This document shows, piece by piece, positions 19,660-27,845 of a DNA stretch of 64,000 nt. Location: NCBI RefSeq assembly GCF_002854065.1, contig NZ_CP024147.1, one strand, 5' to 3'. The notes beneath the pieces were generated by a model. That model saw only the letters and a program-made list of their open reading frames with translations, did not search any database and was not told where the DNA came from. The DNA comes from Escherichia coli. Lineage in GTDB: Bacteria; Pseudomonadota; Gammaproteobacteria; Enterobacterales; Enterobacteriaceae. The stretch's first letter is position 1; every line of letters begins with the position of its first letter. A program made the position numbers and the translations under genes.

Positions 19660-20868
19660 ATGACCTCAACATTATTTTTCTCTCTCGAGAAAAAAAACTG
19701 GATAGCGTACTGGAACAGAGCTCTCGTATTCTTATTCATTACCACCTATTTTTTGGGTGAGATTACAAGGTATAAACATCTTATTGTTATTCTTATGACA
19801 ATAACGACAATCGTCTATCTCTGCAAACGGCCAAAACACTATCTCTCACTATTTAAAACATTTCTTTTTGGTAGTGTTGCCATATTAACTATTGCTGCAT
19901 TGCTGTCACTTCTTCAATCCCCTGATGCAGGTGCTAGCATGAAGGAAATTTTCAAAGCTATTATTGAGAATACTTTACTATGCACAATAGCAATACCGGT
20001 CATATTGAGAGACGAGAAAAGAGAAGATGTCGAAAAAATCGTTTTCTTCTCATTTATTAGTGCGTTGGGCTTACGCTGTTTTTCTGAATTGATTACCTAT
20101 TATAAGGACTATCAACAAGGGATAATGCCATTCGCAGATTATAGACACCGTAGCATTTCTGACTCGATGGTCTTTTTATTCCCTGCATTGTTAAATCTCT
20201 GGCTTATCAAATCAGCAAAATACCGCATTTCTTTTGTGGTTCTAAGCTTTATTTTTATTTTTCTGATATTAGGAACTTTATCCAGAGGGGCCTGGCTTTC
20301 CGTGTTAGTCATTGGATTAATATGGATTCTGATGTTTAAACAATGGAAGTTACTATTAGTAGGAGTAATGGTTTCCATCATTGCATTGTCGGTTATTTTC
20401 ACACATAAGGAGATGACCGCAAAGCTAACGTATAAACTTCAACAAACTAATAGTTCTTATCGCTATGCAAATGGTACTCAAGGCAGCGCACTCGATCTAA
20501 TATTAGAAAATCCTGTTATTGGTTATGGTTACGGTAACGTTGCATATAAAGATGTCTATAATAAACGTGTCGTTGATTATCCAGAATGGACCTTTAGACA
20601 ATCAATAGGGCCACATAATTTTGCGCTATTCATCTGGTTTGGCACTGGTTTATTAGGACTGGTAAGTCTTATGATGCTATACTGTGCAATATTGAAAGAG
20701 TGTATAAAAAATGGCGTCCAGAATAAATACCGCTCACCATATAATGCATATTATATAATCTTACTATCTTTTATAGGTTATTTTGTTATCCGTGGAAACG
20801 TAGAACAAATTGAACCAAATTTATTAGGCGTTTACGCCGGCTTATTATTAGCGATGAAAAACAAGTAA
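19660..20868 (+). CDS. waaL: O-antigen ligase (core type-specific WaaL)
   Basis: ORF track 19660..20868 (402 aa); highly hydrophobic multi-TM protein, AT-rich, directly after waaC and convergent with the outer-core genes. Confidence 0.85.
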   Translation: MTSTLFFSLEKKNWIAYWNRALVFLFITTYFLGEITRYKHLIVILMTITTIVYLCKRPKHYLSLFKTFLFGSVAILTIAALLSLLQSPDAGASMKEIFKAIIENTLLCTIAIPVILRDEKREDVEKIVFFSFISALGLRCFSELITYYKDYQQGIMPFADYRHRSISDSMVFLFPALLNLWLIKSAKYRISFVVLSFIFIFLILGTLSRGAWLSVLVIGLIWILMFKQWKLLLVGVMVSIIALSVIFTHKEMTAKLTYKLQQTNSSYRYANGTQGSALDLILENPVIGYGYGNVAYKDVYNKRVVDYPEWTFRQSIGPHNFALFIWFGTGLLGLVSLMMLYCAILKECIKNGVQNKYRSPYNAYYIILLSFIGYFVIRGNVEQIEPNLLGVYAGLLLAMKNK

Positions 20869-20871
20869 AAA

Positions 20872-20903
20872 ATAAAAAAGGCTGCATAATGCGGCCTTTT
20901 TAT
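20872..20903. terminator. Putative bidirectional terminator between convergent waaL and the outer-core operon
   Basis: aaaaaaggctgcataatgcggccttttt: imperfect hairpin flanked by an A-run and a T-run. Confidence 0.35.
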
Positions 20904-24875: not shown

Positions 24876-25673
24876 TTACAACGATTTTCGAATCGTTCTT
24901 TCCCTGATTTTTGTGGCTTTTGCTTCTGCTTGCGACAGCAGTCCTTGTTCCTGCTTGAGAATGTCTTTAAGCGGGGCGGCAAAATACACTTTCATAAACC
25001 GCCAGATATCCCGCTGAGTCAGGCCGATATTCATCGAAGAAAAATAAAGCCCTATAAGATCTTTATCGCGCCAACGACGTGGAACGCGCGTGCGAAGCTG
25101 CGCCCGGTGCAGGTCAATTACCGAAATTTTTAACTCCTCTTCCTTACCGGAAAAAGGCAAGTGCAACAGGAAATGACAGATATAACAGTCACGGTGGTTA
25201 ATGCCCGCAGCATGCATATCGCGCACCATCGTCGCGACACGCTTAATAAGCATACGCTTTACGCGAACATCTGGAGGGTTAGTCGCCCAGTCAGCACAGT
25301 AATCTTCCAGACTTATGGTTGGTGTCAGATCTTCGGTAATAATAAATGAAGTTCTGGTCAGCGGATTCATGCCTTTTTCGCCAAATGCCACCCCATACAT
25401 AGTATCAACGCCGACATCCCGCAGTCGATGAATCGCATTCCATTCGCGGTCTGCGCCTAATACTGGCATCCGCAATGAGAGTAAATTTTTGATTATCTCT
25501 TTCAGGGTCGTGCCGCGATGCCATTTGAGAAAATAGCTTTTGCCCGCCATTTCAAAGCGCAGAGTACGGCGAGTTTCCAGTTCACGAAATACCTCACCCT
25601 GCAAGGTTTTAACTTCCTCAAAAGGATCTTTACCGCGCCATAACGTGGCAAACGGCTCTTTAAGTTCAACCAT
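24876..25673 (-). CDS. waaP: LPS core heptose I kinase
   Basis: ORF track 24876..25682; start trimmed to [21 protein letters not shown] (recall of WaaP); overlaps waaG by 8 nt. Confidence 0.93.
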
Positions 25674-26790
25674 CCAGACCACCCGTTATGATATCCGCCG
25701 CTTTCTCTGGCAGACTGTATAAATCTTGTGTATCAGCATAATGTCGCGCATTTTCCGCCCAGGCCTGGCGCAATGAAGATTGCGTTAACGCTTTGCGTAA
25801 AATCTCATTCAATGTTTCCTGGCGGAATGGCTCAACAATAGCCTCGCCGCAATTGGCCTCGACAATATAATGCGCATAGCCACAAACGGCTGTTGTTAGT
25901 ACCGGTAATCCTGCAGTAATCGCTTCCAGCAGCACAATTCCCGCCGCTTCCTGGTAGGCAGGATGCAGTAATAAATCCGCCGCCGCCATTAATTCCGAGA
26001 CATCGTTGCGCCCCGAGAAGAAGTGAACATTACTGCGCACGCCGCGTTTTTCTGCCAGCGCCTCAAATTTTCGCGGTTTATCCTGCCCAACAACATATAG
26101 CAATGTGTTGTGGCGCAGCGAATCCGGTAACGAAGCAAGTGCTTCAATGGAACGATCGACACCTTTACGCGTGAAGTCTGAACCGACCTGCAACAATAAA
26201 TATTGTTGTTCGGTTATTCCATTCTTCTTACGGAAGATTTCACGGCTATTAGCTGGCTGCTGGCTATATTTACGATCAGGATAAATCCCCGGTGGCAGAA
26301 TATGAAAACGCTCCGCTTCAGTCTGATAATGTTTCTGGAAATCGGCGATTTGCTTATCTGTCAGCATCAGCAGCTGTGTCGGCTTGCCCTGTTCGAAGGT
26401 TGCCCGCTCAAAGGCGGCATAATGGCGATAACGTGACGTCAGGCGATAGAAAAAGCCTTTTTCCTGCGCTACTTTCTCGGCATAACAAACATCAGCGGCA
26501 TAATAAACGTCCAGCCCCGGCATTTTATTGAATCCAACGACTTTATCGACGGGATGTTCGCGTAAATGTTTTTGCACCCAGGCAAAATACTCCGCATTGC
26601 GCCCGTGATTGGTATGCGATTTAACCGGCACTTTGATCAGTTCAAATACATCAGGGCATTCGCCTTCCCACGACTGGGTATAAACCCGAACATGATGACC
26701 TCGGGCGGCGACTGTCTGAGCAATACGCATAAAATCGCGCTGCAAACCGCCAAAGGGAAAATATTTATATAAACAAAAAGCAACGATCAT
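25666..26790 (-). CDS. waaG: LPS glucosyltransferase I (GT4)
   Basis: ORF track 25666..26790 (374 aa); [25 protein letters not shown]-terminus as recalled. Confidence 0.93.
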
Positions 26791-27845
26791 AACGACGTAC
26801 CTGTCGTGGAGGAGGGCAGTAATTTATCGACAGCAGCAATGATATCTGCCGCCGGAATAACCGAAAGATACATCTCATTTCGGTCACGCTGATCGCGCGT
26901 TGGCATTTCCCGGTAATCTCCCGCCCAGAATTGAATCATGTTATTTGACCAGGGACGCCAGAAAATATGGTCTGTCGCACCAAACAGCGATATCAGCGGC
27001 GTATTAACTGCAGCGGCAATATGCGCCGGTGCGGAATCAACGCCAATAAACAGCTGCGCATGATCGATTAACGCACCAAGTTCCGGGAAGGTCACCTTTC
27101 CAGCCAGCGCCGTTACTGGTGGCGTCTGGCATCCCTGCGCAATTTCATTGACGCAGGCCAGATCGTCTTTATCTGGGCCGGACGTCAGAACGACTTCATA
27201 ACCACGAGCATGTAAGGCATCAATCACAGCGGAAAACTTGGCGTTGTCCCAGCATTTGAAGATTTGCCGCGCCGTAGGTTGGATAACCACATAATTTTGT
27301 CCAACACCAGCGTGATCAAGTTCGCGACGCATACGTTTCCAGCTTGCAGGCGGGTAACTCATGGTTGTCTGCTTCACCAACGAATCAAGTCCCAATGGTG
27401 TCAGCACGGATAAGTTACTTTCCACCACATTTCCACCCTGCAACGGCACCAAATGGGTGAAACTTTTACGCCAAAAAGCAGACTGCCGATGATGATAATC
27501 CTGGGAAATTTTCACACGGGCATTTAATAAGCGAACCAGTATAGCAACCATCCATTGATCGGTAAGATTGACGATAAGGTCATACTTATTGGCACGTAAT
27601 ACCTTGATGAGATGAAAAAAGTTGGCAATTTTTTCTGAGGCTTTTGCTTTTTTATTTTTTATGCCGTAGAGCGCGTTAATCTCTGGATTTTCAGACAGGA
27701 TCGGGATGGTGTCCTGATAAAGCAGCACATCGATTTTTGCGTCAGGGTAATTTTTTTTCAGCGAACTAATGACGGGAGTAGTTAATAACATATCCCCATG
27801 AAAACGCATCTTAATGAGCAAAATTCTTCGAAATGGCTTATCCAC
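26787..27845 (-). CDS. waaQ: LPS heptosyltransferase III
   Basis: ORF track 26787..27845 (352 aa); GT9 N-terminal motif RILLIKMRFHGDMLLTTP; first gene of the waaQ operon. Confidence 0.92.
   Translation of the reverse strand: MDKPFRRILLIKMRFHGDMLLTTPVISSLKKNYPDAKIDVLLYQDTIPILSENPEINALYGIKNKKAKASEKIANFFHLIKVLRANKYDLIVNLTDQWMVAILVRLLNARVKISQDYHHRQSAFWRKSFTHLVPLQGGNVVESNLSVLTPLGLDSLVKQTTMSYPPASWKRMRRELDHAGVGQNYVVIQPTARQIFKCWDNAKFSAVIDALHARGYEVVLTSGPDKDDLACVNEIAQGCQTPPVTALAGKVTFPELGALIDHAQLFIGVDSAPAHIAAAVNTPLISLFGATDHIFWRPWSNNMIQFWAGDYREMPTRDQRDRNEMYLSVIPAADIIAAVDKLLPSSTTGTSL

Follow-up and report, generated by a model that had tools for sequence, protein, structure and literature searches.

Which lipopolysaccharide (LPS) core type is encoded by the waa (rfa) locus in a 64,000-nucleotide stretch of Escherichia coli DNA (contig NZ_CP024147.1; hereafter, the window)? 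An initial annotation had read the organization of the locus as R3 rather than K-12, and gene order, protein comparisons, in silico PCR, and GC content all agree with that reading. Here, we describe an intact, chromosomal waa locus of the R3 core type, arranged in three transcription units, and put the probability of this account at about 0.96. R3 was defined decades ago, published tools type it automatically, and the locus is an already known, routine one that holds nothing new biologically. Because the core type sets the residue to which the O antigen is ligated and influences which phages, antibodies, and predators recognize rough or semi-rough cells, the R3 call is a useful routine annotation.

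Between positions 19660 and 27845, the open reading frame list places waaL (plus strand) facing seven tightly packed minus-strand genes, which run from waaL as waaD (GT4), waaJ (GT8), waaY (kinase), waaI (GT8), waaP, waaG, and waaQ; the coordinates match exactly the layout of seven minus-strand genes and a convergent waaL first proposed. Spacings from waaL to waaP across the type-specific genes are 35, 8, 24, 25, and 42 bp and therefore leave no room for any further gene.

The first transcription unit (plus strand) would be hldD-waaF-waaC-waaL, beginning with hldD (also rfaD/gmhD; 16680..17612, plus strand; ADP-heptose 6-epimerase, 99.4% amino acid identity to K-12 and Sakai, named as in the RefSeq annotation of a near-identical genome) and waaF (17622..18668, plus strand; heptosyltransferase II, 100% amino acid identity to K-12 WaaF). 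The second (minus strand) would be the seven-gene waaQ-G-P-I-Y-J-D operon, with a JUMPstart/ops leader ahead of it and a hairpin shared with waaL at its end. JUMPstart/ops is an RfaH-dependent antitermination signal; the JUMPstart element in the waaQ leader (27895..27933, minus strand; Rfam RF01707, 55.2 bits against a gathering score of 35, E value of 6.4e-10) contains an exact match to ops (GGCGGTAG, 27899-27906). The hairpin (20875..20901), a GC-rich, terminator-like site in the 35-bp waaL/waaD gap with an A-run on one side and a T-run on the other, folds at -16.4 kcal/mol (z = -5.77; equally stable shuffles, 0/200) and is a candidate bidirectional intrinsic terminator. The third unit would be the divergent waaA operon, opened by waaA (28258..29535, plus strand; Kdo transferase; NF004385, 902.4 bits; 99.8% identity to K-12 and Sakai). 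A generic sigma-70 promoter scan was uninformative, with 34 sites against 31.8 expected.

Reference loci were those of O157:H7 Sakai (R3), ET210 and PS10-3 (R1/R4), EC31 (R2), and MG1655 (K-12), with the Salmonella-like R2 locus standing in for Salmonella core proteins. Nine core-typing primers and the expected product size were taken from Trofimova et al. 2025 (PMC13293308, Table 2), and the same primers typed the reference loci as expected (Sakai gives the R3 amplicon). The published R3 PCR yields a 1,021-bp waaD-waaJ product and none from R1, R2, R4, or K-12 (PMC13293308). Core-type PCR, run in silico as a check on the initial annotation, gave this product from the R3 pair only, a 1,021-bp amplicon spanning waaD-waaJ (21964..22984; R3-F at 21964-21983 and R3-R at 22962-22984, 0 mismatches each); the other seven primers had no site in the window at ≤3 mismatches. 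The locus is R3 by this typing and by its gene content, gene order, and sequence identity.

The five type-specific proteins (WaaL, WaaD, WaaJ, WaaY, and WaaI) were 97.3 to 99.7% identical to their Sakai counterparts and ≤58% identical to any R1, R2, R4, or K-12 reference protein. waaL (19660..20868, plus strand; R3-type O-antigen ligase, convergent to the waaQ operon; NCBIfam RfaL NF012031, 689.6 bits; Pfam Wzy_C) encodes a protein with 98.5% identity to Sakai WaaL and 51% to R2 WaaL, and no match to R1, R4, or K-12 WaaL was found at E ≤ 1e-3. waaD, a name formerly given to the heptose epimerase gene, is here the R3 GT4 glycosyltransferase (20904..22046, minus strand; Pfam Glycos_transf_1, 120.6 bits), and waaJ is a GT8 gene (22055..23068, minus strand; Pfam Glyco_transf_8 and Glyco_transf_8C; DxD motif LDADI). 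The best matches of these two products were R3 rather than non-R3 enzymes, as the R3 reading predicted: 99.7% to Sakai WaaD (best non-R3, R2 WaaK, 57%) and 97.3% to Sakai WaaJ (≤43% to other GT8 enzymes; best non-R3, R1/R4 WaaT, 43%). waaY (23093..23800, minus strand; LPS core heptose(II) kinase, R3 allele; Pfam WaaY, 310.8 bits; NCBIfam RfaY NF007684, 387 bits) gave 97.9% to Sakai WaaY and 52 to 58% to other core types. waaI (RefSeq label waaO; 23826..24833, minus strand; Glyco_transf_8 and Glyco_transf_8C; NF011718, 616.1 bits, cutoff of 461) gave 98.8% to the Sakai protein and 54 to 58% to WaaO of other types; it is a predicted GT8 alpha-1,3-galactosyltransferase that would add Gal I onto Glc I (PMC3184986). 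Both the GT8 DxD and the GT4 EX7E catalytic motifs (the latter in WaaD) are intact, and the exact protein sequences of the locus occur on 169 to 741 public contigs each. The R3-specific waaL allele is the in silico typing marker of Leclercq et al. 2021 (PMC8715443).

Homology to non-R3 types picks up again at waaP (24876..25673, minus strand; heptose(I) kinase), for which the RefSeq start is at 25673 (265 amino acids) and the open reading frame extends to a GTG at 25682; its product is 100% identical to that of R4, 99.6% to those of R1 and R3, and 84% to that of K-12. waaG (25666..26790, minus strand; GT4 glucosyltransferase I, Glc I onto Hep II) is 100% identical to R1/R4 WaaG, 99.2% to Sakai, and 89.8% to K-12, and waaQ (26787..27845, minus strand; heptosyltransferase III, first gene of the seven-gene operon; NF007742, 713 bits) is 99.7% identical to Sakai and R1 WaaQ and 73% to K-12.

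The only local irregularity lies in waaC (18672..19646, plus strand; heptosyltransferase I, 324 amino acids; NF008204 RfaC, 632.9 bits; assigned with Sakai and K-12 alignments), which is 975 bp here versus 993 bp in Sakai. Compared with Sakai, the gene has lost 1 bp, which brings in a TGA stop at 19644-19646 and costs it the final 6 codons together with the ATGA overlap with waaL; RefSeq flags the identical allele of the near-identical genome CUWW06 as a frameshifted pseudogene. On these grounds, the locus could be R3 by content but nonfunctional, the frameshift either inactivating WaaC, in which case the outer core would not be attached at all, or uncoupling waaL translation, with truncated or O-antigen-poor LPS as the result. 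We regard this as improbable, since the loss is confined to 6 terminal codons with no out-of-frame tail, the match to the RfaC profile covers positions 1 to 319 of 322, and WaaC of the K-12, R1, R2, and R4 loci (318 to 323 amino acids) is shorter than the protein here. Furthermore, a GGAG lies 8 to 11 nucleotides ahead of the waaL ATG, and 169 public contigs carry the exact 324-amino-acid WaaC under the name of an ordinary RfaC. The 6-codon trim is probably harmless. There is a slim chance that the allele measurably changes heptosyltransferase I activity or WaaL expression, which would mark a sublineage (the 169 public contigs) whose R3 LPS is partly rough or poor in O antigen and whose sensitivity to phages and serum is altered as a result.

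The intact R3 locus has the same genes, order, and orientation as that of Sakai (ECs_4497-4508, waaQGPIYJD plus waaL; annotated there as waaQ/G/P/O(I)/Y/R(J)/D plus waaL), and annotated gene lengths are identical from waaL through waaQ. The two align as one collinear block of 18,001 columns at 98.7% identity, interrupted only by a 1-bp gap. This bears on the idea of a hybrid or novel core type that merely resembles R3, as in recent R2/K-12 hybrids. Hybrid cores occur in about 1% of genomes (PMC13293308), and cassettes and waaQGP allele classes do reassort, as in Ecol_AZ162, where a K-12-type cassette adjoins waaQGP of the R1/R3/R4 class. Here, however, the whole locus is collinear with Sakai, the best match of 5/5 type-specific proteins is R3 (≥97%), and the intergenic gaps are too small for an added gene, which refutes a hybrid at the sequence level and makes it very unlikely.

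The other core types share parts of the R3 plan and depart from it in gene content. The R2 locus of EC31, with its Salmonella-like waaK and waaL end, has a convergent waaL, a GT4 gene adjoining waaL, and waaY between GT8 genes, as does R3, but its minus strand holds ten genes, waaB, waaZ, and one additional GT8 among them, and its waaQGP alleles are of the K-12 class (73 to 88% amino acid identity to those of the window). The K-12 locus of MG1655 (waaQGPSBOJYZU plus waaL) has the same three-operon architecture, flanks, and JUMPstart-bearing waaQ leader; it differs in its ten minus-strand genes without the GT4 gene waaD, in GT8 enzymes that are 40 to 57% identical, and in a WaaL without detectable similarity to that of the window. 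The ten minus-strand genes that the initial annotation gave for K-12 and R2 are thus present in both loci. The operon here has seven genes, not the ten of a waaQ operon that includes waaS (or wabA), waaB, waaZ, and waaU (or waaK); no homologue of WaaS, WaaB, WaaZ, or WaaU was found, and WaaK matches the GT4 protein at only 57% identity.

R1/R4 loci (ET210 and PS10-3) have the same flanks, and their waaQ, waaG, and waaP products are 99.4 to 100% amino acid identical to those of the window. They differ in having three GT8 genes (waaO and waaT before waaY, waaW after), a GT2 (waaV) or GT25 (waaX) gene, and an unrelated waaL that points the same way as the waaQ operon and brings the minus-strand genes to nine. 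The window has neither the waaO-waaT-waaY-waaW order with waaV/waaX and co-directional waaL nor any R1/R4 primer site, and the best GT8 identity to R1/R4 WaaT, WaaW, or WaaO is 36 to 55%. The initial annotation had described R1 and R4 as placing two GT8 genes before waaY, which holds for waaO and waaT but misses the third, waaW, behind it; that summary also omitted the co-directional waaL and the nine minus-strand genes, and its discrimination of R3 still works. A locus of K-12, R1, R2, or R4 type is the least probable reading of all, with no evidence counted in its favor (the 99 to 100% identity of waaP, waaG, and waaQ to R1/R4 alleles is shared, not type defining), and is ruled out by the absence of primer sites of every other type at ≤3 mismatches, by the lack of waaS, B, Z, U, K, T, W, V, or X homologues above 57% identity, and by seven minus-strand genes versus nine or ten.

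The type-specific cassette of the R3 locus measures ∼5.3 kb (about 19553-24875, from the 3′ end of waaC through waaI), with R3-specific sequence starting within waaC at about 19553. Homology breaks lie at 19552 and 24980 against K-12 and at 24876 against R1/R4 (H57). The AT-rich waaL-to-GT8 portion seen in the initial annotation is borne out by GC contents of 0.352 (waaL), 0.371, 0.305, 0.302, and 0.312 for the five cassette genes (30 to 37%) versus 0.47 to 0.48 in waaP, waaG, and waaQ and 0.50 to 0.54 in waaC, waaF, hldD, and waaA (47 to 54%). A low-GC, type-specific center between conserved waaC and waaP/G/Q is a feature of the R3 locus (PMC8715443), and the window has one. Discordant divergence was considered as a mark of recent transfer and rejected: the cassette is 98.6% identical to Sakai at the nucleotide level and its flanks 98.0 to 98.3%. 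Because this difference is no clear discordance, the case for a horizontal origin of the cassette draws only on GC content, the sharp boundaries, and the literature.

Among 5,426 complete E. coli genomes, 1,363 (25%) carry the full R3 locus. In PMC13293308, R3 accounts for 25.8% of the complete genomes that were typed and for 23.4% of commensals, with phylogroups A, B1, D, and E all represented; it also occurs in B2 STc28 (PMC8715443). Since R3 is so widespread (∼25% of genomes, several phylogroups), the handle on lineage that had been expected of it is weak; the nearest relative of the window is the wastewater isolate CUWW06, and selC carries no LEE and no island, a genomic background that differs from that of Sakai.

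The R3 outer core is Glc-Gal-Glc-Glc with a GlcNAc branch. Its assembly by the products of this locus is predicted from their near-identity to characterized O157:H7 and Shigella enzymes; O157:H7 has R3, and the roles of WaaI, WaaJ, WaaD, and WaaL follow PMC9927288, PMC12323348, PMC3184986, PMC8715443, and PMC13293308. WaaC and WaaF would add Hep I and Hep II, and WaaG would then add Glc I. Phosphorylation of Hep I by WaaP, addition of Hep III by WaaQ, and phosphorylation of Hep II by WaaY would follow. WaaI would add alpha-1,3-Gal, WaaJ alpha-1,2-Glc II (PMC9927288, PMC12323348), and WaaD a terminal alpha-1,2-Glc III on Glc II, and the R3-specific WaaL would ligate the O antigen onto Glc II.

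Secondary sources conflict on the sugar transferred by WaaD: it is glucose in PMC9927288 (citing Kaniuk 2004), and it is GlcNAc by the RefSeq name and in PMC3184986, where a Shigella waaD mutant was interpreted as lacking GlcNAc. The RefSeq label of the R3 GT4 as a GlcNAc transferase should be used with caution, as the cited literature describes WaaD as a glucosyltransferase. A complete R3 core also needs enzymes encoded outside the waa locus, according to 10.1101/536201 (citing Kaniuk 2004), which names wabB (GlcNAc onto Hep III; plasmid borne in O157) and a further GlcNAc transferase acting on Gal. In Shigella, wabB sits in a plasmid operon (PMC4267944).

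The waa locus in the window is a textbook R3 locus, a type already known and one that published software assigns automatically. In the ORF map, waaL (19660-20868, + strand; RfaL in NCBIfam, Wzy_C in Pfam) faces seven minus-strand genes: the GT4 gene waaD (20904-22046; Glycos_transf_1), the outer GT8 gene waaJ (22055-23068; Glyco_transf_8 and 8C domain), the kinase gene waaY (23093-23800; WaaY family match), the inner GT8 gene waaI (23826-24833; Glyco_transf_8 and 8C domain), waaP (24876-25682 as a mechanical ORF; RfaP), waaG (25666-26790; WaaG-like GT4) and waaQ (26787-27845; RfaQ). 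RfaC and WaaA flank the block in the family scans. The ORF coordinates of the initial annotation (19660-27845) were reproduced exactly and its family labels were borne out by NCBIfam and Pfam scans of the window proteins; its count of exactly four more genes after waaQ-waaG-waaP is right, because neighbouring type-specific genes lie only 8-42 bp apart. The waaP start is ambiguous between GTG at 25682 (268 amino acids, mechanical ORF) and 25673 (265 amino acids), the latter being the RefSeq choice, which corresponds to the K-12 and Sakai proteins and overlaps waaG by 8 nt.

E. coli O157:H7 has an R3 lipopolysaccharide core (PMC8715443, PMC13293308, PMC12323348), and the waa region of its strain Sakai served as the R3 reference; loci of other types were chosen from a waaF-to-waaA query listing, with K-12 MG1655 added. 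Sakai has the same annotated genes at equal lengths from waaL through waaQ and aligned with the window as one collinear block (18,001 columns, 98.7% identity, a single 1-bp gap). For in-silico typing, the nine-primer set in Table 2 of Trofimova et al. 2025 (PMC13293308) was applied to the loci, giving products of 842 bp for R1 (fetched locus L005), 610 bp for R2 (L007), 380 bp for R4 (L004), 1,442 bp for K-12 (L003) and 1,021 bp each for Sakai and the window (R3). The R3 sites in the window (21964-21983 and 22962-22984) had 0 mismatches, and the remaining primers had no window site even allowing 3 mismatches, so R3 alone was positive.

Window proteins were compared by BLASTP with five references (Sakai R3, K-12, R1, R2 and R4). 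Identity to Sakai and to the best non-R3 protein was 98.5% and 51% (R2) for WaaL, which had no match in the K-12, R1 or R4 references; 99.7% and 57% (R2 WaaK) for WaaD; 97.3% and 43% (R1/R4 WaaT) for WaaJ; 97.9% and 58% for WaaY; and 98.8% and 58% for WaaI. Because the WaaD and WaaJ products matched Sakai best rather than R1, R4 or K-12, the locus is typed from its sequence as R3; collinearity and primers likewise support the earlier claim of R3-type, not K-12-type, organization. WaaP, WaaG and WaaQ are common to several types and not type-defining, since they are 99-100% identical to R1, R3 and R4 alleles (73-90% to K-12 and R2). The R1 and R4 layout had been given as two GT8 genes before waaY, which is incomplete, as a third follows waaY; waaL in both is codirectional with the waaQ operon. 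Strain Ecol_AZ162 (NZ_CP019015.1, 5693-16866) combines a K-12-type outer-core cassette with R1/R3/R4-class waaP-G-Q alleles (98% identical to those of the window), which demonstrates reassortment between cassettes and the “conserved” waaQGP block.

The AT richness proposed for the waaL-to-GT8 portion holds, with GC content per gene of 0.30-0.37 from waaL through waaI, 0.47-0.48 in waaP, waaG and waaQ, and 0.50-0.54 in hldD, waaF, waaC and waaA. Similarity to K-12 breaks off at 19552, ~94 nt short of the waaC end, and returns at 24980 within waaP; similarity to R1/R4-class genomes returns at 24876, the waaP end (match H57 of the query listing). The R3-specific cassette thus spans about 19553-24875, coinciding with the low-GC block. 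A second variable low-GC element borders the locus: yibB/htrL (15519-16391, − strand; Pfam HtrL_YibB, function unknown; GC content, 0.34-0.38) lies between kbl and hldD and is variable in that it is missing at this position in K-12-type Ecol_AZ162 and R2 strain EC31.

Three transcription units are evident: hldD-waaF-waaC-waaL (+), the seven-gene waaQ operon and the divergent waaA operon. The 35-bp convergent waaL/waaD gap holds a 12-pair hairpin (20875-20901; −16.4 kcal/mol, z = −5.77) with A- and T-runs on its sides, which would close the plus-strand unit and is a candidate bidirectional terminator for both units. The waaQ leader carries a JUMPstart element (27895-27933, − strand; Rfam RF01707, 55.2 bits, where the gathering score is 35) containing the ops octamer GGCGGTAG (27899-27906), an RfaH antitermination signal known from waa/rfa operons, as would be expected for an RfaH-dependent operon.

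Relative to Sakai, one T is missing near 19644, so that a TGA arises, waaC stops six codons short (324 versus 330 amino acids) and its ATGA overlap with waaL is lost. In the near-identical genome CUWW06, RefSeq treats the identical allele as a pseudogene (“frameshifted”). We judged the truncation neutral, and a functional effect highly improbable, because the lost end falls past the RfaC profile and the ends of the shorter WaaC proteins of other core types, GGAG precedes waaL, and the exact 324-amino-acid WaaC occurs on 169 public contigs.

Enzyme roles follow published work on near-identical proteins: Gal I is added by WaaI and Glc II by WaaJ (PMC3184986, PMC9927288), WaaD places a glucose substituent on the WaaJ-added glucose (PMC9927288, citing Kaniuk et al. 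2004), and WaaL moves O antigen to Glc II (PMC12323348); by analogy, the window enzymes would do the same, with WaaL attaching O antigen at Glc II. Both GT8 proteins retain the DxD motif (LDADI in each) and the GT4 protein EX7E. According to 10.1101/536201, the full R3 core has two GlcNAc residues whose transferases are encoded outside the waa locus: plasmid-borne wabB acts on Hep III and a separate transferase on Gal. The wabB operon sits on a Shigella plasmid (PMC4267944).

The 20904-22046 protein is labelled “lipopolysaccharide N-acetylglucosaminyltransferase” in RefSeq and NCBIfam, a name derived from a subfamily model built on WaaK. A Shigella waaD mutant was read as being without GlcNAc (PMC3184986), and R3 WaaD is an alpha-1,2-glucosyltransferase according to PMC9927288, which cites Kaniuk 2004. 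Database name and literature are in conflict for R3 WaaD. The name waaD was also formerly used for the heptose epimerase gene. The R3 typing target is described as the epimerase in PMC13293308.

The full R3 locus occurs in 25% of complete E. coli genomes (1,363/5,426), in agreement with a published 25.8% (PMC13293308). Exact sequences of five type-specific or flanking proteins lie on 169-741 public contigs each, and E. coli and Shigella relatives share their 90% clusters. The suggested use of R3 as a handle on lineage finds little backing: the type occurs in 23.4% of commensals, in phylogroups A, B1, D and E (PMC13293308) and in B2 clonal complex STc28 (PMC8715443), and so says little about lineage.

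The window is 99.99% identical over about 59 kb to CUWW06, a Thai wastewater isolate, which differs by a ~1.3-kb ISKox3 (ISL3-like) insertion between yicC and dinD (~37423-37430 in the window, which lacks it). Downstream of selC (tRNA-Sec, 55944-56034; 83.8 bits) lie setC-yicL-nlpA, the K-12 arrangement, so up to ~59300 the window has neither a LEE nor another large island there, the R3 core notwithstanding; a rhuM fragment is the only feature annotated beside selC in CUWW06. At the nlpA/mnmE junction, where CUWW06 has extra ShET2/EspL2-like toxin fragments and IS2 that are missing from the window, an IS1 copy (~59325-60093) truncates nlpA and is directly followed by mnmE (60102-61466, −) and yidC (61538-63184, −), an IS1-associated rearrangement relative to K-12 gene order (58897-63184).
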